In this document: positions 1-64,000 of the stretch, piece after piece
How positions within the stretch are numbered: the first letter of the stretch is position 1
Layout: every line of letters begins with the position of its first letter
Source: a virus
DNA length: 64,000 nt
IMG/VR virus record: IMGVR_UViG_3300022204_000004
Location: 12,922 to 76,921 of that record
Direction: 5' to 3' (one strand)
Made by a program: the position numbers and the translations under genes
Notes under the pieces: generated by a model
Told to the model about the DNA's origin: nothing
The model's input: the letters and a program-made list of their open reading frames with translations, nothing else
Database searches by the model: none

Positions 1-87
1 CCGAAAAGCTTGAAAGGAAAATTTTCCCTTCTTTTGCAAGAACCATAATTAATTTATTTGGTGGATTGTTTTAAATAAACTGTTGTT

Positions 88-3305: not shown

Positions 3306-4112
3306 TTATTTCTGATTTTTAATTAAACGTAATGTATCAAAGGCATGTTTGTATTTAGAAAGAAAATGTTCCCCTCTATTGCCTCTTAATTTTAATAAAT
3401 TCCAAGCTTCTACAAAACAATCCAAACCCTCTACGAGTCCATGATTCTTCATATAGGCTGTTAATACAGTGTGCCCCATAGTCTTAACATTTATATTTGT
3501 TAATAAATTGGCCGCACCTACTGGTCCACAGGCTTTTAAACCGCTTATGTTATCAACACTGTCACCTGTTAACATTTGGGTCATTAGAAAAGAGAAAGCA
3601 TCTGCTTTACTTACCTCTAAAAACCTTTCTTCTTTAATGTCAAAATGAGTACCTGGTATCTGTAAAAGGTCTTTATCCTTTGACCAAATAAAGGTTTCTT
3701 CATCTTGTAACATTGAAAGAACATCATCAGCTTCCAAGTCTTTGAACTGTAGTGAGGGAAATCGTTCCCTAATGTATTTGACCACTTCTTGCTTATCTAA
3801 AAGCTCTTGTGGATATTTAGGAACATAAGTCCTATTGCCTTTATACTTTTTATCAAAAGCTATATAGCTTCTGAAAGTATATTCAGCGGGTCCTGAAAAG
3901 CAAAACAAATAACCTTTAGCTTTTACCGTATTCAAAATATGGTCTATTCTTTCTTTAGTGAATTTGTGAACCATATTCTCATAGATATAGGCTTCCTTGT
4001 TATTTTGAGCTTTCATTACACTATCGACAACCAAATATTTGATATAATCAGCATCTACAAGTGCAATCTTGTCTGTCTCGATAATCTGTTTTGTTGGTGC
4101 AACTATTTCCAT
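3306..4112 (-). CDS. 5'-3' exonuclease / RNase H (T7 gp6/FEN-like)
   Basis: Motifs VDAD, YKGNR, LEADD, KDKDLLQIPG, LTGDSVDNISGL..CGP. Confidence 0.9.
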   Translation of the reverse strand: MEIVAPTKQIIETDKIALVDADYIKYLVVDSVMKAQNNKEAYIYENMVHKFTKERIDHILNTVKAKGYLFCFSGPAEYTFRSYIAFDKKYKGNRTYVPKYPQELLDKQEVVKYIRERFPSLQFKDLEADDVLSMLQDEETFIWSKDKDLLQIPGTHFDIKEERFLEVSKADAFSFLMTQMLTGDSVDNISGLKACGPVGAANLLTNINVKTMGHTVLTAYMKNHGLVEGLDCFVEAWNLLKLRGNRGEHFLSKYKHAFDTLRLIKNQK

Positions 4113-6482: not shown

Positions 6483-6609
6483 CAATTACCAATTCATTAG
6501 GCAAAGCGAACAAAGCAATCCTATAACATCGTTTTTCAAACTCTTCCTTGGATTCATCTGGATAGCTAATAATAGAACCTCCTTGATAGCCTAAACTTGC
6601 TTTAAACAT
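6454..6609 (-). CDS. Small hypothetical protein, 51 aa
   Basis: MFKASLGYQGG...ELNLTK; start overlaps the methyltransferase stop. Confidence 0.4.
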   Translation of the reverse strand: MFKASLGYQGGSIISYPDESKEEFEKRCYRIALFALPNELVIEKKELNLTK

Positions 6610-7486
6610 TTTTATCTATCACAATGACTTTAGCACCTACAAGGGTTCCTGAAGATTTAAACGAACCTCTTTCGATGTCCATGATATGTGCACCAACAGA
6701 TTGAAGCCAATATCTAAAATCAGATTCTTTTTGATTATTGGAAATTTCCCAATGTTCTGAAGCTACGGAAACCAATCTACCATTATTTTCAAGACGATCG
6801 TACATATGTTGTATGTGGTCAATGTCCTGATTTTTTGTAAATGGTGGATTAGCTATAATCCTATCAAACTTACTACCACTCCATTCAAGAAAGTCAAACT
6901 CTCGTTTTATTACAACGTCTTTATGTTGATATTTCTCTTTAAGGATTTCTGTGTTGGTTCCCATTAATTCTATAGCAAAAATCTCACGATTGCCATGTCT
7001 TCTATGGATTGCATCAATAATGGCTCCCTGACCGGCACTTGGTTCAAGAACTGTTGACCAAGGCAGAATATCGGCAAGTTCTACAAGCCAATCAGCAATT
7101 TCATCAGGAGTTTCAAAGAACTGAAATTCTTTCTTTAGATTGATTTTCTCGCCATTTTGAACCCTACCGAGTAACTCACTAGGGTCTGTTGGAAATACGT
7201 GTGCTTTGGCACTTCTATTCCATTTACCGCCTATACCAACAAGTGCTTTGTTTACTTGTTGATATAAGGCTCTGTCTAATTGTTGTGGTAGGTAAACATT
7301 GTTACCCTCGATGCGACATGCATCAAATACTTCCTGCGTTGTTTGCATTTTTTTATTTATTAAAAAAGTTAAATAGCTAGGGAAAGAGTCGCCTTTATTA
7401 TATCCCAATACCTTGATTTGGTATTCTCGTTCTGCGATAAGCTCAAGTAATGACTTGCCTATACAAATTTCTTCATATTCAGTCAT
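6602..7486 (-). CDS. DNA N6-adenine methyltransferase (start possibly 7348)
   Basis: Motif I LEPSAGQG, motif IV IANPPF, upstream FQFFETP. Confidence 0.85.
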   Translation of the reverse strand: MTEYEEICIGKSLLELIAEREYQIKVLGYNKGDSFPSYLTFLINKKMQTTQEVFDACRIEGNNVYLPQQLDRALYQQVNKALVGIGGKWNRSAKAHVFPTDPSELLGRVQNGEKINLKKEFQFFETPDEIADWLVELADILPWSTVLEPSAGQGAIIDAIHRRHGNREIFAIELMGTNTEILKEKYQHKDVVIKREFDFLEWSGSKFDRIIANPPFTKNQDIDHIQHMYDRLENNGRLVSVASEHWEISNNQKESDFRYWLQSVGAHIMDIERGSFKSSGTLVGAKVIVIDKNV

Positions 7487-7616: not shown

Positions 7617-9101
7617 TTAGAATGGTACATTATTGTCCTTATCAGGAACGTTAAGTGATATTTGATTGCTTTGAGGTGGTGGTGGTGGAACCTTTGCACT
7701 TGGTGCTGTTACAGGAATGATGTCATAAGAGCCAGTATAACTGTAAGCACTTATGGTCATTTGAATAGCATCCAAAAATATGTGAATGGTTGTTGTACCC
7801 AAATCTCTACCTTTTGCAAATATGAATTCAGTATGGAAAAGTTCAGAATAAGGAATTGTCGCTCCGGGCAAGTCCTTGTCATAATAAGCTTGTCTATAAA
7901 GGAATACTGCAATATCTGCATCTTCCTCAATACTTCCCGATTCTTTTAGATCCGATAGCATTGGTCTTTTATTATGTCTGCTTTCCACACTTCTGTTAAG
8001 CTGAGATAATGCTATGACGGGAATATAATTTTCCTTTGCCATAGACTTACATTCCCTTGAAATAAGAGTTATCAGTATTCTGGGATCCATTTTACCTTCT
8101 TCCGATTTACATCTTTGAATGTAATCTATGAATACGGCTTTGACCCCTTTATCCCTGACATACTCTTCGGTCTTTCTTGAAATTTCCTCAATGGTCGTTA
8201 CTTTGTCCAATATGAAGAAATACAAGCTGTCATCAATGAACTTGCTACAAGCTTCTACTCGTTGCAGTTCTTCGTCTGTAAGCATTCCTGCTTTTATTTT
8301 CTTATACGGTATCTTTGTCTCTAATGATATTATTTTAGATTTTAATTGATTCTTAGGCATTTCCAAAGAAAAGAACAGTACGGGATTTCCCAACTTGGAA
8401 GTTTCCCAAGCGGATATAAGAGCAAAAGTTGTCTTACCCATACCCGGTCTTCCCGCAAGAATAATCAGTTCGCCAGGTGAATAACCACTCATGAAATCAT
8501 CAATGACCTCAACAGTGGTCGAAACCCCAACGGATTGTCCTACTCTTTGTTTTGCTACTTTTTGCCTAATTTCAGCGTTATAATCGTTTTCCTCTACGGT
8601 TTCGTTTCTCTTTAGGTTAATGGTCATTCTCTCGAACAGACTATTGTATTCAGCAATAATATTATCGCTTACCTGAAGAACATCTCTACCGTTCCAATTT
8701 CCATAAAGCACATCATGAGCATTCCAATTCCAAAAGTCCATTATTACGTATTGCTTTAAAATAAAAATATCATGTTCCAAAGTGTTTATGGAATATGTAC
8801 CAGCAAAAAGAACTTTAGCCAATTCAATTTCAAACTCTTTGTAATTATTCAATCTGTATTTCTCAGGTCTAAACTGACCAACAGCAACAACCGTAGGAAC
8901 GGCATTTTGTTTATAGCACTCAAAGATCGCAGAACAAATGTCCTTATGGGCTTCTAATCTAAAATCCTTAACCCTAACGTTATGTGCTTCAACTATACTC
9001 CTTACCTCAGTATCTCGGTCAACATTCATTATTGTACCAAGTATCTGTGCCTCGACTTGATATCGATGGTCGATATCATAGTTGTTATATTCATTTATCA
9101 T
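7617..9101 (-). CDS. dnaB: Replicative DNA helicase
   Basis: Walker A GRPGMGKT, FSLEM, FIDYIQ, ALSQLNR, SDLKESGSIEEDAD. Confidence 0.95.
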   Translation of the reverse strand: MINEYNNYDIDHRYQVEAQILGTIMNVDRDTEVRSIVEAHNVRVKDFRLEAHKDICSAIFECYKQNAVPTVVAVGQFRPEKYRLNNYKEFEIELAKVLFAGTYSINTLEHDIFILKQYVIMDFWNWNAHDVLYGNWNGRDVLQVSDNIIAEYNSLFERMTINLKRNETVEENDYNAEIRQKVAKQRVGQSVGVSTTVEVIDDFMSGYSPGELIILAGRPGMGKTTFALISAWETSKLGNPVLFFSLEMPKNQLKSKIISLETKIPYKKIKAGMLTDEELQRVEACSKFIDDSLYFFILDKVTTIEEISRKTEEYVRDKGVKAVFIDYIQRCKSEEGKMDPRILITLISRECKSMAKENYIPVIALSQLNRSVESRHNKRPMLSDLKESGSIEEDADIAVFLYRQAYYDKDLPGATIPYSELFHTEFIFAKGRDLGTTTIHIFLDAIQMTISAYSYTGSYDIIPVTAPSAKVPPPPPQSNQISLNVPDKDNNVPF

Positions 9102-9109
9102 CTCATAGT

Positions 9110-9358
9110 TTATTTGTATTTATGATATTGGCATCTGTAATTACCTTTATCGGTTATTTTATAATTCCAATTCCAACATGAACGGATGAGTTTCTCTCTA
9201 TAAAACATAGAAACATCACCAATACTATTGTGGCGACTATATTGACAGACACGTTTCCAAAACTGTTTAAGAGTTTCTTCTTTGTATTTGTAATACCTTA
9301 TTCTCATATTACCAAAATTTGCATGATAATCTAAGTCCTTGTCATCATTCTGGTTCAT
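9110..9358 (-). CDS. Hypothetical protein
   Basis: Start overlaps the ThiF stop; lies between ThiF and dnaB. Confidence 0.5.
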   Translation of the reverse strand: MNQNDDKDLDYHANFGNMRIRYYKYKEETLKQFWKRVCQYSRHNSIGDVSMFYREKLIRSCWNWNYKITDKGNYRCQYHKYK

Positions 9359-10092
9359 ATCTTATTTGTTTTAACGTTAATAGGATTTAAGCTAAAATAT
9401 ATCTGACTTTGCAGTATATTGAAATCAAGCAACAGTGATGACAGCATTTCTAAAGCATACACGCCTGTCAGCTTGTTTATCATAAAGCTTTGCTCTCTAA
9501 GTGAAGCACGAAGAGAACAGCTTGGTTCGTTGACCTTATCTTCCATATTTGGGTGTAGGTCAATAATACTTGGTAATATCATTTTTGTTTCTTTACCATA
9601 GGCACTTAAAATTATTTGTCCATAATCTCTTGAATTACCACAATCAATCCAATAATGTGTTCTTTGTTGACCATGATAATTCCCTTTTTTGCCATTTTTC
9701 TTAATGGCTTTATCAATTATCTTTCTTGTCCTGACATTATCAACACAAGAAATAACAATGTTATATTTATCTCTTTCCAAATCTTCACCTGAAAAGGTTT
9801 CATTTCTAAATTCCACATCTGTTCCATAGGCTCTATTGACCCTATTGACCAATGTTTCGGCTTTTGATTTACCAATGTCAGAGGGAAAGAATTTCTGCCT
9901 ACCAACATTATGTTCTTCTACAATATCATCATCATAGACAATGATTTTCAGTTCCTTTCTGTCAAGTATCTTCAATGTATTTGACAAAGACACCAATTCG
10001 GGAAGAACAAAGCTTCCGGTTCCACCCACACCTACAAGAACAACCGTTATTCTATGTACGGGATTTACGATATAATCACTTGTGCACAACAT
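9355..10092 (-). CDS. PRTRC system ThiF-family (E1-like) protein
   Basis: GVGGTGS, YDDDIVEEHNVGRQKF, ISCVDN, YWIDCGN..YGQ, EPSCS..Q..INK; likely start 10092 (ORF track extends to 10248). Confidence 0.9.
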   Translation of the reverse strand: MLCTSDYIVNPVHRITVVLVGVGGTGSFVLPELVSLSNTLKILDRKELKIIVYDDDIVEEHNVGRQKFFPSDIGKSKAETLVNRVNRAYGTDVEFRNETFSGEDLERDKYNIVISCVDNVRTRKIIDKAIKKNGKKGNYHGQQRTHYWIDCGNSRDYGQIILSAYGKETKMILPSIIDLHPNMEDKVNEPSCSLRASLREQSFMINKLTGVYALEMLSSLLLDFNILQSQIYFSLNPINVKTNKI

Positions 10093-10777
10093 TTCTAAGA
10101 TATTTATTAAGTGGCAACAGTTCTTTTGATGGAAACCGTGTTTGGTTTTCGTCTTTGATAAGACTTTCCAATAACGGTAGAGTTGGAGATTTCGTTCTTC
10201 CAGCAGCGTAATCTGTAGTGAATGTTGAATTGAAGAAACCATCTTCAACCATTCTCATTATTTTTTCATAGCTGTTGTTGGAAGTGAAATTCTTAATATC
10301 CATAGTTCCCCAACATAAGTTTTCGTCTTTCTTAATGTTAGGAAAAGGAGCTTGGAACAAAGGCGTATATTCATCGATATTTGTTGTCTTTACAGCATAG
10401 ATATAAAGCTCATTGTTGCTCAATCTAAATATCAAATGAGGATAGAACAATCTTCCCTTTACCTTTTTGTACTTAATTTTTCTGAGCATACCTTTACAAA
10501 ACCAAGTAATTCTTGGAGATAAGGCATTTGGATCAAAGTGAAGTACATTTCTTGGTATCATTCCCGTAAAGACAATCTTTCGGTCTTCACTTTTGACCAA
10601 TTTTGTCTTTACTGTATTGAATAGTTGGTCTAATGCTTCATAAGAAACAGGTTTGTAGCTTTGAGCCACATCGTTTACTATTTCAGCATATTCAGTATAA
10701 AAACCATTTCTACTCTTATAGAACACCATATTGAAGAACGGTTTTAAAGGTTCTTCGTCAATTTGTGAAACAATCAT
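10076..10777 (-). CDS. PRTRC system protein B (prokaryotic E2 family D)
   Basis: PHLIF..LYIYAVK...TPLFQAPFPNI...LCWG...FFNSTFT; directly upstream of ThiF. Confidence 0.85.
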   Translation of the reverse strand: MIVSQIDEEPLKPFFNMVFYKSRNGFYTEYAEIVNDVAQSYKPVSYEALDQLFNTVKTKLVKSEDRKIVFTGMIPRNVLHFDPNALSPRITWFCKGMLRKIKYKKVKGRLFYPHLIFRLSNNELYIYAVKTTNIDEYTPLFQAPFPNIKKDENLCWGTMDIKNFTSNNSYEKIMRMVEDGFFNSTFTTDYAAGRTKSPTLPLLESLIKDENQTRFPSKELLPLNKYLRNVVHK

Positions 10778-11759
10778 ATTGCTTAAAGTATAATTTAGTT
10801 AATTTGTTAATTCTCTCTTTTCTGCTTTCAATAGCTTGTTTGCTTATTTCAACACCAGGTCTATATAACAATACAGAATAAGCTCTCTCGGTTATCATGT
10901 TTTGCCCCATTTGGTCCATATTGTAATAAATGTATGAATCGTATGCAGAACCCTCAAGGTCTGTATCATATTCATATCTAAAATGAAACAAGTCCTGAAG
11001 AGCTAAATAAGTTTCTTGTCTATCTTCATCAGAAACATTCAATGGAACCATATCATTAAACTTGCAACCACTGTTAAAACTGTCCAAGGCATCATAAATA
11101 AACTCTTTCCATTTAGGATGTTTCTTGACCATTTTTTTAACGTATTTATCATCAAATTCAAAATAATTCCCTTTAGGAATTCTCTTGAGATAAGGTCTAA
11201 TGATTTTTGTATAAATCTTATAGGCAAAGTAGTCATTGGAATGGTCTTCAAATGCATAATCACTTTTGGGATCTTGTACTTCCCAATAGATTTCATAAGC
11301 CATTTCCATACAACTTTCATGTATATAGTTGTCAAATAGACTGTGACCACACCAATCAAGATTAGCCAATATCTTTAAAAGAAAATCTGTAAATTCTTCA
11401 TCTTTCCTTTCTTTAATAAAAGCTTTGATTGGTATAGAACCACTATCATATTCATTACCGGCATCCAATCCGATAACAAATACATTGGCCACATCTATTT
11501 CATAGGTATTGTCTTTCTTAACGATAAAACGTGAGAGCAATAAAATACAGTCATTCAAAGAATCATTTTCAAAAAGCATAAGGTCATCAATGCTATCATC
11601 AATGTCTTTGGCAAATCGATAAAGATTTTTGATAAGACGTATTTTTTCTTCTCGGTCATGGTCTTCAAGCCAGACAACACCTTCTTCAGCTCCTAAAGTA
11701 ATACCCTTATAGAAAGGAATTACGTTAAAACTATTTCGTTTGAAGGTATTTTGTAACAT
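10758..11759 (-). CDS. PRTRC protein F-like (positional call)
   Basis: Acidic 333-aa ORF overlapping protein B, in the slot where F sits in E-C-F-B-ThiF operons; no sequence motif confirmed. Confidence 0.45.
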   Translation of the reverse strand: MLQNTFKRNSFNVIPFYKGITLGAEEGVVWLEDHDREEKIRLIKNLYRFAKDIDDSIDDLMLFENDSLNDCILLLSRFIVKKDNTYEIDVANVFVIGLDAGNEYDSGSIPIKAFIKERKDEEFTDFLLKILANLDWCGHSLFDNYIHESCMEMAYEIYWEVQDPKSDYAFEDHSNDYFAYKIYTKIIRPYLKRIPKGNYFEFDDKYVKKMVKKHPKWKEFIYDALDSFNSGCKFNDMVPLNVSDEDRQETYLALQDLFHFRYEYDTDLEGSAYDSYIYYNMDQMGQNMITERAYSVLLYRPGVEISKQAIESRKERINKLTKLYFKQYDCFTN

Positions 11760-11858
11760 CCGTCTTTTCTTGTTTTTTGAAGCGTTCTTAATAGTTCTTC
11801 AGCATCTAAATTGCTTGCTACACAATTATCGTTTTTACTGTCTATATTCTCAATATAT

Positions 11859-12218
11859 TCAGCTATGCTTATCTTTTTCATCTATGATTATTTTATATTC
11901 ATGTATGCCTATGATTTTACCAAACGAATTATTATTAATGAGTTTATCCGTAAAGTGGTCATAAGCTTCCATATTTATAAATTCATGCCATCGAGTATCG
12001 TAAACACCATCTTTCTTAATGGTCATCTTTACTTGCACTCTATTGTTGTCTTTTACTATAATCCTCTTAAATGGAGTATAGTTTGTATTCATCCATGAAT
12101 GACCTTTTGAATGAAGAAAATCCCAAATGGCTTCATCATTCCAATCACTGTCTATTTCGTACACGAATACGTCATCAAAGTGACTATCGGTAACAAGTAT
12201 GGTTATCAAATATCCCAT
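11859..12218 (-). CDS. Hypothetical protein
   Basis: ORF in operon. Confidence 0.6.
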   Translation of the reverse strand: MGYLITILVTDSHFDDVFVYEIDSDWNDEAIWDFLHSKGHSWMNTNYTPFKRIIVKDNNRVQVKMTIKKDGVYDTRWHEFINMEAYDHFTDKLINNNSFGKIIGIHEYKIIIDEKDKHS

Positions 12219-12442
12219 CAGTTTTCGTTTAAAATGATTATTTGTTCTAATTCTATTAAAATATTTATCAGTTTTTCTTTAATCTGATAAAGCCTGATAA
12301 CATCTTTATCGTTAATTCCCTGTTTCATTGGATCTATGTTGTCATACATCACTTTGCACTGGGCTACCATGTCTTCGCAGTCAAAGGCATTTCCTAAGCC
12401 TCCATATAATTGCGACTCTTTTTCGTTAGCTAAATTTGGCAT
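12218..12442 (-). CDS. Hypothetical protein
   Basis: Stop/start overlap with the next gene. Confidence 0.55.
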   Translation of the reverse strand: MPNLANEKESQLYGGLGNAFDCEDMVAQCKVMYDNIDPMKQGINDKDVIRLYQIKEKLINILIELEQIIILNEN

Positions 12443-12465
12443 TTCTTTAATGATGCAATAGGGAT

Positions 12466-12498
12466 AAAAAGATACACCCCCCTAAAGGGAGGTATATC
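12466..12498 (-). terminator. Intrinsic terminator after DUF932 gene
   Basis: GATACACCCCCCT/AGGGAGGTATATC imperfect stem with T-tract on the minus strand. Confidence 0.65.
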
Positions 12499-12515
12499 CT
12501 ATCCTTATCCTTATA

Positions 12516-13592
12516 TTAAATTGAAGCGATTTTTCCAGCTAATTCGTCAAGCTCTTGTTTCCGTCTTTCACCAATGTCATTGCTGACAGCTGTAATAGCT
12601 TGTGAAAGCTTCCATCTGGTAGGAGCACCTACTACACCTTGACTTGGATCACTTTGAAGTAACTTGGTCTGTACCAAGCTTGTTTCTTCTTTTGTGAATC
12701 CCATTCGTGGAAGTTTAATGATTTCCTTGTCAATGTCAATCATTTCATGACTTGCTTTATACACGTTCTGAACTGTTTCCATAATTCTGTTTGGAGACAG
12801 TACACTTACCATGATATCGTCTATAGCACTTGCCATAGCACGAGTATCTAATGTATAGGTTCGTTCACTGAAATTGATATCGTCAGGAAGACGTTTGCCC
12901 AAATGTATCTGTTTCAGTAAAGTATCTGTAACCATACCGTTAAGACAAGCAACGTTCATTTGAAAGGCTCTTACACCTAAAGCACCATCACCATAATCAC
13001 TATTGCCAATACGAGCACCAAAGACAGAATAAACGTTACCGTTATTCGGTGTCTCAATGGTATATACTCTTGGTATGATAGTATGGATATAGCTTTTGGT
13101 TTCACTATAATAAGCATCATAAATGACTGCTCCCATATTATGACAGCCTTTGATAAAAGACTCATAAATCTCATTAGAGTTTAATCGTCTGTACTTGTCA
13201 CTTAAAACAGCTCTTGTTTCATCTCCAACTGTTCTAACTAACAGTCTGTTACGGTCAATGTTTGCTGAATGTTCCGTAAGAACATTGTTTAGCAACTGTC
13301 TTCCCCAATCGCTTTCGTTTAAATAACCAACATACTTTCTTGGTATATTGAACTTATCACCTAATTGCATTAGGGCATGCGGGTGTATCTGAAATTGAGA
13401 ATCATCAAAGTTCATATACATTTTTCCGTTCGCATTGAACGTAACATCCATATTGGAACCCAAGTTCACAATATAATCTGTCAATAGAGAATTGTCTCTT
13501 TCTATTCTTTCCAAAACAGATTGATTTTTCCCTGTTCGCTGACTCAATAAGTGGTCAACTTTGTTCTGAAGAATTTCTACTTCTGCATTCAT
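12516..13592 (-). CDS. DUF932-like protein
   Basis: AVLSDKYRRLN, NSDYGDGAL, VACLNGM, QIHLG motifs. Confidence 0.75.
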   Translation of the reverse strand: MNAEVEILQNKVDHLLSQRTGKNQSVLERIERDNSLLTDYIVNLGSNMDVTFNANGKMYMNFDDSQFQIHPHALMQLGDKFNIPRKYVGYLNESDWGRQLLNNVLTEHSANIDRNRLLVRTVGDETRAVLSDKYRRLNSNEIYESFIKGCHNMGAVIYDAYYSETKSYIHTIIPRVYTIETPNNGNVYSVFGARIGNSDYGDGALGVRAFQMNVACLNGMVTDTLLKQIHLGKRLPDDINFSERTYTLDTRAMASAIDDIMVSVLSPNRIMETVQNVYKASHEMIDIDKEIIKLPRMGFTKEETSLVQTKLLQSDPSQGVVGAPTRWKLSQAITAVSNDIGERRKQELDELAGKIASI

Positions 13593-13594
13593 TG

Positions 13595-13810
13595 TTATTT
13601 ATTTAAAGGATTAATATTAAATTGATTTTCTACAAATATCAATGCACCGTTTTCTACGGCTTCATCAATTTTGCAGTCACATGCATTATCTTCTACATTG
13701 AGTTGCCAATCTACCTGATGACTTTCGTCATAAGCAAATACTGCATGTGTTTTCCATACTTTCTTTGCTTCTTCGGGAGTTATTTCGCTCCATGTACTAT
13801 GAAATGCCAT
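13595..13810 (-). CDS. Hypothetical protein
   Basis: ORF in operon. Confidence 0.55.
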   Translation of the reverse strand: MAFHSTWSEITPEEAKKVWKTHAVFAYDESHQVDWQLNVEDNACDCKIDEAVENGALIFVENQFNINPLNK

Positions 13811-13959
13811 GTTTTTGTCTTTTAAATTTCTTCATTGCTGCTTTTACTGTCGTACTCCAGCCTTTAGGCTTGTAAGAGCCATCGGTAATAAGAGTTTCAA
13901 GAAACCCTGTACGTTTGCATTTTCTGAATACTTTCATTGTTTTTGCGAGTTATAAAATT

Positions 13960-13990
13960 AAAAAAGCCATCTGAATAAACAAATGGCTTT
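13960..13990 (-). terminator. Intrinsic terminator
   Basis: AAAAAAGCCAT...ATGGCTTT downstream of the ORF ending at 14001. Confidence 0.55.
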
Positions 13991-14000
13991 GTGTTAAAAC

Positions 14001-14271
14001 TTAGTGAACGACTTTAGTGACATGCAATAAGTTCATCAAATTATCCAATCCACTTCTTGATAAATAAGGATAATTTTTAGGGTCTTTATGTGGCATTTTA
14101 ACCATTGCTTCATAAGGAAAAGCAAAGGTTGATTCTGCCATCATTCCTGTGGAAACCCTTATGGATATGCCATTTTCAAATGTGAAATCAGCATACTCGT
14201 TGAGCTCTGTATAATTCTCTCCAAATTCTGTTGTATATCTTTTGAATGTAAGTCTTTGGAAAAAATTCATA
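14001..14271 (-). CDS. Hypothetical protein (likely start MNFFQRL, about 14270)
   Basis: ATG immediately after the protein C stop; ORF track extends to 14327. Confidence 0.55.
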
Positions 14272-14481
14272 TTAGCCTTTTGTTCCAAGGTTCTTACTAA
14301 ACTCATATACAGCTTTATCATTCTCAATCTTTGGACCTGTTACAGATGCATTCAACAGTTCCGGATGTTGATTGGAATAGATTTCCATAATTGCTTCAGG
14401 AGATAATGACGGATCTATATCCAACAAAACTTCCTTGTTGTACTTGAACTCTCTAACGAGTTGTTTAGATGTTACTGCCAT
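14272..14481 (-). CDS. PRTRC system protein C (prokaryotic ubiquitin-like)
   Basis: L.REFKY...DPSLSPE.IM..YS..HPEL..A.V.GP.......YEF...GTKG; C-terminal Gly. Confidence 0.9.
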   Translation of the reverse strand: MAVTSKQLVREFKYNKEVLLDIDPSLSPEAIMEIYSNQHPELLNASVTGPKIENDKAVYEFSKNLGTKG

Positions 14482-14483
14482 AT

Positions 14484-15557
14484 TTAAGATTGTTTAACTC
14501 CGTTTTGTAATATATGATTTTCTAAGAACTTAAGACTTTCCTCATTCTGTTCATCTGCAATAGAATCAGGATTGAAACCGTACTCAACAGCAAGTTTCTT
14601 TAGGTCAGCAACACGTTCTGCCATAGTTTTAACCTTTGGTGGTTCTGGCATCGCTACAGGTGTAGGCACTGCAACCGGTGTTGGAGGAACAAATGCGGGA
14701 GCAAGTTCCTTCTCTTCACTGAAACTAATGTCATTCCCTAAGTCTTTGAACTCACTGAATGACATTGTTGGTTTTGGTGCTTGTGGCTCTATAAACTTCG
14801 GTTCTACGGGCTGTAACGAACCATTGCTCTTGTTTATATTTGTTTTCAAATCTTGAAAGCCACGTTCAAATTCTGCCATTGTTGCTTTCTCTACATAAGC
14901 TATCGAAAGTCCAATACCACCTCTTACATATTGTTTCTCTTCTTCTTTTTTAATAAAACCAAGAGCTATAAGCCTTGCTTCTCTTTCCAAAAAGAGTTTA
15001 GATGGTTCCATTGCTTGTTCCTTTTGTTCAACTTCCATAGCTTCAACATCTTCTTTAGGAACAATAACTTCAGTAGCTGTAAGGGTTGCCGATGTTGTAG
15101 ACATTCCTTGCACTGGAGCACCACGCTCAGGAACAGTTGCAAACATATCCAATGTTTCAGGTTCTTTAGGTTTTACAGGTTCTTTAGGTATATCAACTTT
15201 AATTTCAGTCTGTTTGGACGTAGTTGTTTTAGCCTCTGTTTTACCTTTAGCCTTTGACTTTGGCTTGGCCGCTGCTTCACTAGAAGCTTTTTCTGCTCTT
15301 TTCAACGATTCCTCAACAAAGGCTATACGCTCAATAGGAGACAAGCTTCTACTGACCAGCTGTGTAATGGTCGTTAAAAATTCAGCATCAATCTCTTCAG
15401 GTTTCCCTGAAATACGAATAGGAGCTATGTTCAAGCTTTTGTCGTCTTTATCTTTTACGATAAAGAAAACAATCACTTCCATAAGTCCATCGTCTTTGGT
15501 CTCAATGACCAACTGAACTTTTGCCTTTTTGGCAATAGGATTTAATTCGTTTAACAT
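14484..15557 (-). CDS. PRTRC system protein E with long C-terminal extension
   Basis: N-terminal beta strands then PIRISGKPEEIDAEF signature; low-complexity tail; upstream of protein C. Confidence 0.8.
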   Translation of the reverse strand: MLNELNPIAKKAKVQLVIETKDDGLMEVIVFFIVKDKDDKSLNIAPIRISGKPEEIDAEFLTTITQLVSRSLSPIERIAFVEESLKRAEKASSEAAAKPKSKAKGKTEAKTTTSKQTEIKVDIPKEPVKPKEPETLDMFATVPERGAPVQGMSTTSATLTATEVIVPKEDVEAMEVEQKEQAMEPSKLFLEREARLIALGFIKKEEEKQYVRGGIGLSIAYVEKATMAEFERGFQDLKTNINKSNGSLQPVEPKFIEPQAPKPTMSFSEFKDLGNDISFSEEKELAPAFVPPTPVAVPTPVAMPEPPKVKTMAERVADLKKLAVEYGFNPDSIADEQNEESLKFLENHILQNGVKQS

Positions 15558-19784: not shown

Positions 19785-20189
19785 ATGGCAAGTAACCTAG
19801 AGATCCATTCTCACATATCGACTTATCTTGAGAGCCAACGTACAGACATCCTAACGGATGACTTCGGTTACTCTACCTACACGGCTCCCAATACAATGTT
19901 CCACATGCATAATGCAATGCCCGAGATCATGATAGCTATGCCTCCTCGCGTCCTCAAGGTTTGGCTTCGTAGTATCTCTCGTCTTAAACGAAACCACGAC
20001 CCTGTTATTGCCTGTACCATTGTCATGGGCTACACGCACTACAAGGATATCGTGTCCAAAGGCTCCTACTACAAAGCCGTTAAACAGCTTGAAGAGGACA
20101 AGTTTCTGATACCTACCCTCAATAAAAAGATTTATATTGTTAATGTTAAGCATGTCAACAAACTTTATAAGCCTAAGTTTGAGATATAG
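19785..20189 (+). CDS. RepL-like winged-helix replication protein
   Basis: VSKGSYYKAVKQLEEDKFLI....KIYIVN wHTH pattern; lone plus-strand gene in the left arm. Confidence 0.6.
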   Translation: MASNLEIHSHISTYLESQRTDILTDDFGYSTYTAPNTMFHMHNAMPEIMIAMPPRVLKVWLRSISRLKRNHDPVIACTIVMGYTHYKDIVSKGSYYKAVKQLEEDKFLIPTLNKKIYIVNVKHVNKLYKPKFEI

Positions 20190-20193
20190 TTTG

Positions 20194-20275
20194 TATATTT
20201 GACATGCATAATGATGGTGTTTTTGCGAACAACTTCATAACAGAGCCACTTAAACTTCCTGCTAAGTGGCTCTTG
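20194..20275 (+). ncRNA. Putative sRNA antisense to the repL-like 5' UTR and start codon
   Basis: TATATTTG box 20194-20201; 20207-20231 complementary to 19765-19787; hairpin AGAGCCACTTA/TAAGTGGCTCT 20242-20273. Confidence 0.65.
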
Positions 20276-20279
20276 TCAT

Positions 20280-20810
20280 TTATCTTTGTTCTGACATTAG
20301 ATTGGGATTAACTATTCTTAAGTTCTCAGAACAGTCTGCCAATTTCTTGACGTTCTTCACAAGCTCATAGCGTAGCCATTCGCCTTTACTACGTGACTCA
20401 AACTTCCATCTGTCAAGCTTAACACCTAATGGGTGCATCATCTCCTCTTTCTTGCTGATGGCCTCATTGACCAGCTCTAGTCGATAATGCTCAGGGATAT
20501 CACTGTTGCCAGTAGGCACAAAGTGCTTTAGCCTGAAAGGGTTCTCATGGATCTCTTGGCTCATGTTGTCGGAGCAATAGGTTGTTCCCACATACTCCTG
20601 ACCAGGCAACAAGTGAGGTGTTGTACCTCGTCTGAGCCTACTGGCCAACTTGTTGCTGAGCTCCACAGTAGCCTGTGTCCATGGAGAGTTCGGAGGAAAC
20701 TGAGTCCTCATACAATAGTAACCTGTCAATGGTTCCATACCATCAACCACTTCGTGTGTTGGGTTTGCTTTAACCAAGCAATACTCAATTCTAACTTCTT
20801 TTGCATTCAT
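20280..20810 (-). CDS. Hypothetical early protein
   Basis: ORF in operon. Confidence 0.65.
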   Translation of the reverse strand: MNAKEVRIEYCLVKANPTHEVVDGMEPLTGYYCMRTQFPPNSPWTQATVELSNKLASRLRRGTTPHLLPGQEYVGTTYCSDNMSQEIHENPFRLKHFVPTGNSDIPEHYRLELVNEAISKKEEMMHPLGVKLDRWKFESRSKGEWLRYELVKNVKKLADCSENLRIVNPNLMSEQR

Positions 20811-20812
20811 AA

Positions 20813-21235
20813 TTAATTATTTGTTTTTGCTGCTCTTTGGCGTACCCAAGGAGCATAGATTAATGTATATCCAAGACCAGCAACAGTCAATGACGCTGCT
20901 ATTGTTGGACCTAATTGTGCGGTAGCTATGAGAGAAGCACCAAAGATGATGACATCAACTGTCTTGTTCCCTTTGATGATTATGTATCTCACATACTTGT
21001 TAGTCTCTGCCAATGCTACCAAGCCGGCTAGAGTTACTATTCCCACGAATAGATATGTGCCTATTGCAGCACCTATTCCTAGTCCTAGTACTGTCAGGCC
21101 ACCAAACACAGCCGCCCCTACGGATAGAGGCAATGGCTGTATCTCTGGCACATCAATAGTCCACTTCTTCTTAGGAGGTGGATCAGTGATACTACCACCC
21201 TGTTCCCAAGGTGGTTTCTTCCAATTCAATCCCAT
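20813..21235 (-). CDS. Multi-pass membrane protein
   Basis: Gly/Ala-rich hydrophobic helices. Confidence 0.65.
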   Translation of the reverse strand: MGLNWKKPPWEQGGSITDPPPKKKWTIDVPEIQPLPLSVGAAVFGGLTVLGLGIGAAIGTYLFVGIVTLAGLVALAETNKYVRYIIIKGNKTVDVIIFGASLIATAQLGPTIAASLTVAGLGYTLIYAPWVRQRAAKTNN

Positions 21236-21236
21236 G

Positions 21237-22151
21237 TTATGCAGGGATAGGTTCTGAAACTGTTACAGCCTTTGGCATGATAGCCTTGACTGTGCTCTTG
21301 ACTGCTCGCTGTGGAGCTGTAAGTATGGCTTTCGCTCTGTCATCTATAGCTTGTTTGATTTGATCACGATCATCATCGGTGATATCAAGCTTGTGAATGA
21401 TAAGGGCTTCGCCATCTCGTAATAGGTCAGTGCCTTTCTGCATCTGTTTCACAATGAACTTACCAATGTTGGTTGCTCCTTGTGCTGGTGTGTGTAGGCT
21501 TGTGCCTAATCCGAATGTTACTGCTCCCGCAGTCTTTCTGCTGTACCAATTCACTTTGGTGAACATGGTTACAGGCTGTTGTACTTGTTGCTCTTGTGGA
21601 GCGGTTGTTTGTTGTTCCATTTCTTTGTGTGTTTTAATGGGTTCAACTATTGGTTGAGGACTTTCCTCAACTTCTTCTTCGTCTATTTCCAACTGTTCTT
21701 CGACAGACTCTATGTCTGCTTCTGATAGTTGTGACTTGGAGTAGACTACTCCATCTGGGTCTACTGCGTAGTCGTCTTGGTCGTCGTCAGGACCGACATC
21801 GTAATGGTCAGTGTATGCCTGTTCATCGGCATACGGATCTTCGTCCGGGTCTTCGTCCTCGACTGTAGCTGTTCCGAAGTTTGGAACAGGTCCGAATGCA
21901 TTCTCAAGGTCGTCCTTGATGTCGCTCGGTAGCTCGGCCACGTCTACTGCTTTAGTGCTCATCGTCGGTGGATTCTCTACTTTGTAATCATCCCCGAAGT
22001 TTGACTTCATAGCTCTGAAGTATTGACCTCTGGTCATCCCGTTATCACGGTCAACTTCTTTACTGTGGATGAAGTGATCTCTACTTCCGTCCTCGAACTC
22101 TAGCATGAAGCCTTTGGCTGTCTCTACTACGATTGCATTTACTTTACTCAT
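21237..22151 (-). CDS. Early protein with highly acidic central region
   Basis: D/E-rich segment EDEDPDEDPYADE...IDEEEVEE. Confidence 0.7.
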   Translation of the reverse strand: MSKVNAIVVETAKGFMLEFEDGSRDHFIHSKEVDRDNGMTRGQYFRAMKSNFGDDYKVENPPTMSTKAVDVAELPSDIKDDLENAFGPVPNFGTATVEDEDPDEDPYADEQAYTDHYDVGPDDDQDDYAVDPDGVVYSKSQLSEADIESVEEQLEIDEEEVEESPQPIVEPIKTHKEMEQQTTAPQEQQVQQPVTMFTKVNWYSRKTAGAVTFGLGTSLHTPAQGATNIGKFIVKQMQKGTDLLRDGEALIIHKLDITDDDRDQIKQAIDDRAKAILTAPQRAVKSTVKAIMPKAVTVSEPIPA

Positions 22152-62996: not shown

Positions 62997-64000
62997 ATGG
63001 CAACAGTAGGACAAAGTGCAAGTTTTTTAGGTTTAACCCATAGACCCAATAAACAAGCACAGGCACAAGCAGATTTGCAGACTCTTGATTTAATGGTTCA
63101 AAGAAAGAAAGAAGCCGAAGCTCAAGAGCAACAGGCCGCTTTAGTTGAACAACAATACTATGATAGATTGCGTCAAGAGGCAGATAAATTGTTGGCTCCT
63201 GATAGAAAAAGAATAAATGAAAAAGCTAAACAAGTACAAGCCAGTGTTCGTGAAAAAATCAAACTGTTCGGTGGTTCTCGAAAAAAGTTCATGGCAAACG
63301 GTGGTTTGAGTATGATTGGTGGCTATAGTGATCAAATATTGGATTCTGAAGAACTTGCAACCTACAGAGCCAATAAAGAGAATATGGTCAAACTACTTGA
63401 CATAAAAGAGAAAAATATGGGTCATAGGTTGAGTGCAATAGACCAAGCCAATCTTGAAGCTTATCAAAGAGATGGCTCAGGAAAAGTGAGCTATAGTGGT
63501 CTAATGAACGAAATAGATATACCGGATCCTGACACTGAATTGTTTGGCAAGAAAATGACAGCTGTCGATATTTATAAATATAAAGAGAATTTCCAAAAAC
63601 TTGTTGCAAACTATCAGTTGGAACATCCTGACGTTGATTTAGAAAAATTAGATCCTGACCCAGCTGAAAATGCTAGAAAACTAGAACAAAAAATGCTTAT
63701 CTACGCACATACAAAAGGATATGGTGGTGTTGGTAATAGAATATTGCCCCAACAAACAGATAGGACAGGACGAAATACAAAAGGAACTGATGCTACTAAA
63801 CCTAAATCAGCTGGACATACAGTTTCTACAAGTTTAGCCCTTATCAATAGTTTACAGACAGAAAAACCTATTGATACTCTTAGCATAAAAGATTTTGAAC
63901 AAGATGAGTTGATATCAGGAATGTTAGGCAATACAGAGTTTAAAGTGCAAGGAAGTAACGATGCAAGTTTTGACTCTATAAGAGGAGGCGGACTCGGTGG
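62997..64000 (+). CDS. Putative ejection/cargo protein, truncated by window end
   Basis: MATVGQSASFLGLTHRPNKQ...; appears open to the window edge; Q/A-rich helical N-terminus. Confidence 0.6.
   Translation, partial: MATVGQSASFLGLTHRPNKQAQAQADLQTLDLMVQRKKEAEAQEQQAALVEQQYYDRLRQEADKLLAPDRKRINEKAKQVQASVREKIKLFGGSRKKFMANGGLSMIGGYSDQILDSEELATYRANKENMVKLLDIKEKNMGHRLSAIDQANLEAYQRDGSGKVSYSGLMNEIDIPDPDTELFGKKMTAVDIYKYKENFQKLVANYQLEHPDVDLEKLDPDPAENARKLEQKMLIYAHTKGYGGVGNRILPQQTDRTGRNTKGTDATKPKSAGHTVSTSLALINSLQTEKPIDTLSIKDFEQDELISGMLGNTEFKVQGSNDASFDSIRGGGLG

Follow-up and report, generated by a model that had tools for sequence, protein, structure and literature searches.

Among the bacterial operons that combine a ubiquitin-like protein (Ubl) with E1-like and E2-like enzymes, the PRTRC cassette (ParB-related, ThiF-related cassette) corresponds to the fourth type of operon (row 6d of Table 1) in Iyer, Burroughs and Aravind 2006 (PMC1779556). 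The canonical proteobacterial form (TIGR03734-03742), represented by Paraburkholderia sabiae pPs24235_2 and a Cupriavidus plasmid, runs ParB-E-C-F-B-A-ThiF, in which C is the Ubl, B the E2-like protein, ThiF the E1-like protein and A a JAB protein with a JAB-N domain. Its function has been stated as not studied (PMC13366799). Here we analyse a PRTRC-type cassette carried by a virus, in a stretch of 64,000 nucleotides (the window) that covers bases 12922-76921 of the 76,921-bp IMG/VR record IMGVR_UViG_3300022204_000004 (CheckV completeness 97%).

The same logic of Ubl, E1 and E2 underlies Bil (BilABCD), Bub (Type I/II, formerly 6E) and the Cap2/Cap3 branch of the Type II cyclic oligonucleotide-based antiphage signalling system (CBASS), which function without an E3, the Bil E2 having been proposed to recognise its targets directly (PMC11601596, PMC10557695). 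These three are host-encoded antiphage defences and none has E or F partners, whereas PRTRC uses other E2 and E1 families (Prok-E2_D and a single-domain ThiF); Bub chemistry is moreover oxyester, not thioester.

PRTRC is mainly described from plasmids and integrative elements. This background, on which the original prediction of the cassette drew, is incomplete, as PRTRC has already been annotated in phages: RefSeq Ralstonia phage Dina (NC_055026, gp07-gp02) carries E-C-F-B-A-ThiF without ParB, the same set is present in BgVeeders33, and PRTRC is described in the Burkholderia phages AB2 and BgVeeders33 (PMC13366799). As RefSeq and two papers of 2026 already contain phage cassettes, the case presented here is not the first. 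These proteobacterial phages are 33-39 kb long, at least AB2 is a prophage, and they hold the full E-C-F-B-A-ThiF set, with a C-terminal extension of ~60 residues on the Ubl and a ThiF 28-31% identical to that of the window. In BgVeeders33 the cassette is likewise inside a tailed-phage genome, and a gene for a DnaB helicase lies no more than ~3 kb away.

A shorter form occurs in Bacteroidota, where 10 of 401 sampled genomes held 11 PRTRC_E-positive loci, all of them five-gene cassettes without JAB. JAB-less E-C-F'-B-ThiF cassettes are also found on a Tunicatimonas pelagia plasmid (NZ_CP120684.1), in an Ignavibacteria metagenome-assembled genome (MAG), and on plasmids of Alteromonas, Pseudoalteromonas and Deinococcus.

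Content and layout of the cassette

We searched the record with the curated hidden Markov models of the PRTRC families, as had been proposed with the original prediction, and four of the five genes named there (E, C, B and ThiF) were confirmed (Table 1), in agreement with its call of a phage-encoded PRTRC-type Ubl/E1/E2 cassette. Altogether, these matches and the gene arrangement indicate that the phage holds a resident, reduced and interrupted cassette of this type inside its replication module.

The E1-like ThiF matched TIGR03736 far better (Table 1; 183 bits also in a six-frame search of the record) than other models (ThiF, MoeB, SAMP-E1; at most 45 bits), and had a weak local match of 29 bits to a cap2-type model. 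Its nucleotide-binding motif (G21xGGxG26) and the cysteine of its PSCS motif (Cys192), together with D54, N62, R65, Q66, K77 and D118, were invariant in nine of nine PRTRC ThiFs, and its adenylation motifs align with those of human UBA6. The identity, motifs and cysteine predicted for this protein were thereby recovered; the TTG start at 10248 was not, the start being the ATG at 10092, which matches that of a relative (L005; L004, L005 and L034 label loci of related phage) and gives a 17-nt overlap with B. In the ThiF tree, the window and L005 proteins form a long-branch pair (stem 2.06) outside a 13-row Bacteroidota clade (support 95/91), a placement with support 90/84 on a branch of 0.043. 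Because the pair falls outside that clade, the JAB-less five-gene type is assigned to the phage by content, not by phylogeny.

The E2-like protein B, predicted from its LCWG cysteine, was matched well above the cut-off of Prok-E2_D, with the cysteine at Cys155. Both Cys155 and Asn147, located eight residues upstream (FPN-x7-C), were invariant in 23/23 B proteins. The catalytic, nucleotide-binding and Mg residues of ThiF and the B cysteine are all kept in the alignments, as the claim of intact motifs had it. The FPN-x7-C spacing is the same as in the HPN...C of classical E2s.

Protein C, predicted as a Ubl ending in GTKG, matched both Ubl families (TIGR03738 cut-off, 45.95 bits), and its reading frame indeed closes with GTKG-stop, the final residue being Gly69; C would be made in its mature form, with Gly69 exposed. 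A Gly-stop terminus was found in all 19 JAB-less cassettes examined, GTKG being the ending at each of the 11 sampled Bacteroidota chromosomal loci. Three of four JAB-containing cassettes showed a C-terminal extension past KG. The fourth, from Cupriavidus, encodes a C that ends in KG with no extension, which rules out a strict two-way rule in which the presence of JAB means an extended Ubl. The one-way rule alone holds: a JAB-less cassette has a terminal Gly on its Ubl. Since a ready-made Gly terminus goes with JAB loss, the phage can manage without the peptidase.

The fifth gene, predicted as F-like, is o333. Its position and its homology to a Bacteroidota F-position family stood, and its membership in PRTRC_F did not: TIGR03742 had no match in the record at E <= 10, o333 included, and matched 0 of 14 o333-family members scanned. 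A profile search of 1.84 billion representatives returned a family of only 16 clusters. When the o333-family profile was aligned by hhalign with that of the Bacteroidota F-position proteins, the probability was 94.3% (E 1.1e-7, 226 columns), making o333 very probably a homologue of the unnamed family that takes the F position in the five-gene JAB-less Bacteroidota cassette. A homologue also lies directly upstream of B in the related phage (L004/L005). The o333 structure was modelled with confidence (pLDDT 84, pTM 0.80); nothing in the PDB was found by Foldseek with E below 0.9, which does not amount to a new fold, and a wide VIA-align search gave a best Z of 4.5, with no fold assigned. Direct comparison of o333 or o358 with the PRTRC F of Dina yielded nothing, and a mixed profile of five F-position proteins had no match because the F-position proteins of different PRTRC lineages are mutually unalignable. 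Word-indexed homologue searches with o333 or B returned the query alone, a limit of that method, and a related-locus search with the B alignment returned the two known contigs only. Complex prediction for B with o333 (0.40, as compared with 0.52 for a control in which an unrelated protein replaced B) has no weight either way.

The predicted order E-C-F-B-ThiF was correct. The genes do not form a single canonical contiguous block: C and o333 are 2.5 kb apart, separated by two hairpins and six open reading frames (ORFs; o89, o71, o358, o74, o119 and a doubtful o53). E and C are spaced by 2 nt, C and o89 by 1 nt, and a 190-nt gap with the first hairpin follows; next come o71 and o358, 2 nt apart, and a 73-nt gap with the second hairpin; finally o74, o119, (o53), o333, B, ThiF and o82 overlap or abut, with DnaB 8 nt further. 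The cassette appears to fall into two transcription units, both inside the replication module, hairpin 13963-13990 being a candidate terminator, by its match to the consensus, that would close the E-C-o89 unit. A sigma-70 promoter scan, which does not cover Bacteroidota-type promoters, was not above the shuffled background (49 vs 42).

As predicted, neither JAB nor ParB was detected in the 76.9-kb record. PRTRC ParB (TIGR03734) had no match at E <= 10 and Prok-JAB (PF14464) none at E <= 1, with responding controls in both searches; protein A (TIGR03735) had none at E <= 10 in a search whose controls were also silent. In canonical cassettes the JAB gene sits at the junction of B and ThiF, and here no slot is left for it, because these two genes overlap by 17 nt.

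The arrangement is shared with a related phage. The contig L004, whose terminase is 66% identical, has the layout E-C-o89 ... F-like-B-ThiF-(two small ORFs)-DnaB, and the identities between the two phages are 61% for ThiF, 56% for C, 46% for DnaB, 36% for B and 23% for the F-like protein. On a third viral contig (L016), with a terminase 26% identical, a compact C-F-B-ThiF is found.

Canonical PRTRC and the phage cassette share the order of their homologous E, C, B and ThiF genes, the catalytic Cys residues and the terminal Gly of the Ubl, but the phage cassette lacks ParB, protein A, a TIGR03742-type F and the E2 histidine. The Bacteroidota JAB-less cassette (such as that of the Tunicatimonas plasmid) is closer in content: gene order, absence of JAB and the F-position family are shared, C ends in GTKG or GIKG, as does the phage protein in GTKG, and E likewise combines an N-terminal domain with a charged tail that bears an x[DS]LF motif. 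It is however compact (~3.5 kb) where the phage cassette is interrupted; the phage has in addition the conserved o89 after C, its E2 lacks the F[TS]H histidine and its ThiF lies outside the Bacteroidota clade.

Two observations concern the plasmids of this comparison. The Deinococcus proteolyticus plasmid pDEIPR02 (L066, NC_015162.1 62497-74090) carries E-C-F-B-ThiF and immediately after it a second F-B-ThiF, that is, one Ubl gene and two enzyme sets. On the Tunicatimonas plasmid (L013 15059-16094), a DUF6527 gene and a ThiF-family adenylyltransferase gene form a Bub-type (6E) operon ~7 kb from PRTRC.

Table 1. Features of the cassette and its surroundings, in window coordinates.
Feature	Position	Strand	Match or remark
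5'-3' exonuclease	3306-4112	minus	Replication arm
N6-adenine-type methyltransferase	6602-7486	minus	Replication arm
DnaB-type replicative helicase	7617-9101	minus	DnaB_C PF03796, 229.6 bits
o82	9110-9358	minus	Follows ThiF; junctions ThiF -4 nt o82, o82 +8 nt DnaB
PRTRC ThiF-family E1, 245 aa	9355-10092	minus	TIGR03736, 182.6 bits (cut-off 144.75)
PRTRC protein B, E2-like, 233 aa	10076-10777	minus	Prok-E2_D PF14460, 79.5 bits (cut-off 25)
o333, F-position protein, 333 aa	10758-11759	minus	3' end overlaps B start by 20 nt
o119	11859-12218	minus	Head of operon with F-like, B, ThiF, DnaB
o74	12218-12442	minus	Head of operon with F-like, B, ThiF, DnaB
Terminator-like hairpin 2	12477-12492	minus	After o358; consensus match
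o358	12516-13592	minus	phrog_1362, 219 bits
o71 (71 aa)	13595-13810	minus	Part of inserted unit 12516-13810
Terminator-like hairpin 1	13963-13990	minus	11-bp stem then T-run, just past o89
o89 (89 aa)	14001-14270	minus	Begins 1 nt past C stop codon
PRTRC protein C, 69-aa ubiquitin-like beta-grasp	14272-14481	minus	TIGR03738, 77.3 bits; Prok_Ub PF14454, 79.4 bits
PRTRC protein E homologue, 357 aa	14484-15557	minus	TIGR03741, 44.9 bits (cut-off 37.95); PF19556, 36.3 bits
TLDMF, candidate clamp-binding-like motif, E residues 135-139	15141-15155	minus	Predicted disordered tail

The tail of protein E

Protein E was found as predicted, with TIGR03741 above its cut-off over residues 1-117 of 357 only. 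It consists of this N-terminal PRTRC_E domain (~1-117) and a long Lys/Pro/Glu-rich tail, and the L034 homologue is built alike. Across the E proteins compared, the N-terminal domain is common to all and the tails are charged and Lys/Pro-rich, otherwise unalignable. A short motif recurs in these tails: TLDMF of the phage aligns with PDLF in L034 and QADLF on the Tunicatimonas plasmid, P[DS]LF is found in Bacteroidota chromosomes, and QKELF, QLTLL, LASLF or LASLL occur C-terminally in various relatives. A [DS][LM]F was present in 10 of 17 E tails, as compared with 0.46 expected from composition-preserving shuffles; several of the 17 rows are related and correspond to about six independent lineages. 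The beta-clamp-binding motif is Q-phi-x-[LM]-[FL], the internal motif of the E. coli Pol III alpha subunit being QADMF (PMC11139829). The E-tail motif may thus be a candidate sliding-clamp-binding-like peptide, conserved across phyla.

A more far-reaching proposal is that E acts, by means of its conserved x[DS][LM]F peptide, as a clamp-docking adaptor, which would bring the Ubl, E1 and E2 to the replisome; tagging of a replisome part or of the tail of E itself would then let polymerase-less elements (this crAss-like phage, plasmids, and integrative and conjugative elements, ICEs) capture or regulate the host Pol III. We regard this as unlikely to be correct as it stands. If true, PRTRC, which has been unexplained since 2006, would gain a function in replication and not in defence.

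The carrier phage and neighbouring genes

Judged by its terminase relatives and its muzzle protein match, the carrier is a distant crAss-like phage, lytic-type. Minus-strand genes extend to ~22 kb of the window and plus-strand genes follow, the plus-strand arm encoding the terminase TerL (phrog_6681) and the portal (phrog_6547). By tblastn against GenBank, the nearest terminases were those of crAss-like, Flavobacterium, Cellulophaga and Azobacteroides phages (~25% identity), and a protein of 1870 aa matched the crAss muzzle protein crAss_MUZ (PF25731) with 234 bits, which upholds the crAss-like genome that the original prediction had assumed. No paper naming both crAss-like and ThiF was found in our literature search.

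The minus-strand replication arm includes the helicase, exonuclease and methyltransferase genes of Table 1. No match to a family A or family B DNA polymerase (PolA, PolB) was found anywhere in the 97%-complete record, so the phage presumably uses the host replisome. A crAss-like phage without a family A or B polymerase is unusual.

Near the switch of the two divergent arms lie a single plus-strand ORF of 134 aa (19785-20189) and a local rise in G+C content (0.44 at 20001-22000 vs ~0.35). Directly upstream of the window, an ORF of 3965 aa (G000:C1:1098-12995, plus strand) has its end at window positions 1-74. crAss-like phages typically encode giant virion proteins, packaged RNA polymerases among them. 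At the other end, the last window ORF (62997-64000, plus strand) continues past the end of the linear record, and a further plus-strand ORF begins at record base 66 (G000:C1:66-1091); the genome may be circularly permuted, with the cut that gave the record lying in or beside a gene.

Among the small ORFs, o89 was missing from the gene listing that accompanied the original prediction. It is 44% identical (E 2e-23) to a 90-aa ORF directly after C in the related phage (L005/L034). It had no Pfam or NCBIfam match; its AlphaFold2 model, computed from a two-row alignment, was unusable (pLDDT 46), and in the ESM Atlas unnamed viral clusters alone were found below 0.9. Neither o74 nor o119 had a Pfam, NCBIfam or PHROG match.

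The unit o71-o358 is probably not part of the Ubl system and rather an unrelated moron-like insert. More than 350 homologues of o358 were found at 40-63% identity, largely in metagenome assemblies (some from Tara Oceans), and it matches Croceibacter phage P2559S at ~67% nucleotide identity. It has no Pfam domain, and phrog_1362 is a family without assigned function. In the relative L034 it is missing and a different insert of 7.7 kb occupies the same place. We also considered o358 as the predicted F-like ORF and rejected it, phrog_1362 being an independent phage family that L034 does not have.

Proposed mechanism, alternatives and significance

A reduced PRTRC-type conjugation cassette, with control or capture of DNA replication as its preferred purpose, is in our view the best explanation of this locus and, on balance, a probable one. 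It builds on what was computed here, namely homology, catalytic residue conservation, synteny in the related phage and the terminal-glycine rule; conjugation, its target and its purpose are what we infer from them. In this scheme, the 69-aa Ubl C would be made with a free C-terminal glycine, dispensing with a trimming JAB peptidase. The ThiF-type E1 would adenylate Gly69 and take the Ubl onto Cys192 as a thioester, from where it would move on to Cys155 of the E2-like B. B would then transfer the Ubl to a target lysine, probably jointly with the F-position protein, which evolves fast and whose gene always directly precedes that of B; the conserved residues make it plausible that host or phage proteins become conjugated. 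The purpose would be to control or capture DNA replication, and the motif in the disordered, Lys-rich tail of E would bring E to the host replisome, possibly along with the tagging machinery.

Several points weigh against this scheme. The two terminator-like hairpins and the unrelated insert part E and C from the enzymes, so that their co-expression is only assumed. Taken alone, TLDMF is weakly unexpected (shuffle P = 0.10), and it fits positions 2-5 of the clamp-binding consensus without the leading Gln. Protein B scored 70.4 bits with TIGR03737, below the cut-off of 131.45, and the downstream His of aligned B proteins, present in 18/23, is Thr188 here; for the 6d type, this E2 His was described as absolutely conserved and assigned to the active site (PMC1779556). 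Finally, no biochemical work on any PRTRC cassette was found in the full-text PRTRC literature search, and no target, E3 or deconjugating enzyme was identified.

The purpose could instead be counter-defence, with the phage Ubl machinery tagging and neutralising host immune proteins or interfering with Ubl-based host defences such as Bil, Bub or CBASS Cap2. Every bacterial Ubl/E1/E2 operon that has been studied by experiment takes part in phage-host conflict (PMC11601596), fast evolution as expected of conflict genes is seen in the F-position gene and in the N-terminus of B, and PRTRC B of a Phocaeicola vulgatus prophage has been reported as a recurrent mutational hotspot (bioRxiv 10.64898/2026.10.01.756045). 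Yet the cassette sits in a replication operon coupled to DnaB rather than with early or anti-defence genes, nothing points to a defence protein as target, and a role against the own host is less obvious for a cassette that is common on plasmids beside ParB and in Bacteroidota chromosomes (10/401). Replication control is favoured by the translational coupling of B and ThiF into the DnaB operon, the lack of a phage polymerase and the clamp-motif-like peptide of E, and counter-defence seems to us rather unlikely.

The loss of the downstream histidine of B raises a different alternative, that the E2 step is weakened or altered: B would be inactive or a mere carrier or binder of the Ubl, and isopeptide conjugates may not form. 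Threonine replaces the histidine in L005 as well as in the window, and on the Tunicatimonas plasmid, and glutamate does so in the phage contig L016; F[TS]H is kept in 10/10 chromosomal Bacteroidota B copies compared. The score below the NCBIfam cut-off points the same way, as does the low identity of B between two phages whose ThiFs are much better conserved. Against this, Cys155 and Asn147 do not vary among the 23 B proteins, and the His-less form occurs in two phage lineages, on the Tunicatimonas plasmid and in one Deinococcus copy (the first B of that plasmid), with all reading frames intact. This recurrence in independent elements speaks for a change that is tolerated and against decay, and an altered E2 step seems to us quite unlikely.

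A reading without any protein tagging, in which C and ThiF would work as a sulfur carrier and adenylyltransferase pair of the ThiS/MoaD type, or perform adenylation only, is very improbable. The pairing of a beta-grasp protein with an E1 is ancestral to sulfur transfer (PMC1779556), and ThiF does weakly match the ThiF, MoeB and SAMP-E1 models; the PRTRC-specific model is however far the best, the cassettes always include an E2-like protein whose cysteine is invariant, and no rhodanese, thiazole or molybdopterin synthase genes were found among the window ORFs scanned.

The phage/ICE chimera raised with the original prediction, that is, an ICE or plasmid cassette misjoined in assembly or a recent non-functional pick-up, has a next to negligible chance: plasmids and ICEs are the best-known carriers of PRTRC and 386 plasmid records match ThiF, but G+C content is even across the cassette region, the genes overlap into the phage DnaB operon, a second phage contig is arranged alike, and ThiF sits on its long branch with a phage relative and has no close bacterial relative among 185,579 species genomes, the one full-length relative being from an Ignavibacteria MAG.

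Among the bacterial ubiquitin-like operon families, PRTRC belongs to those for which no function has yet been demonstrated by experiment; its relatives Bil, Bub and CBASS-Cap2 have all turned out to be genuine conjugation systems. A minimal version in a phage replication operon suggests that ParB partition and JAB-mediated maturation and deconjugation of the Ubl are dispensable; the remaining core, E, C, the F-position protein, E2 and E1, narrows the functional possibilities. Two testable leads follow: the terminal-glycine rule in JAB-less cassettes, and the clamp-motif-like peptide of E, which could link PRTRC to the replisome.

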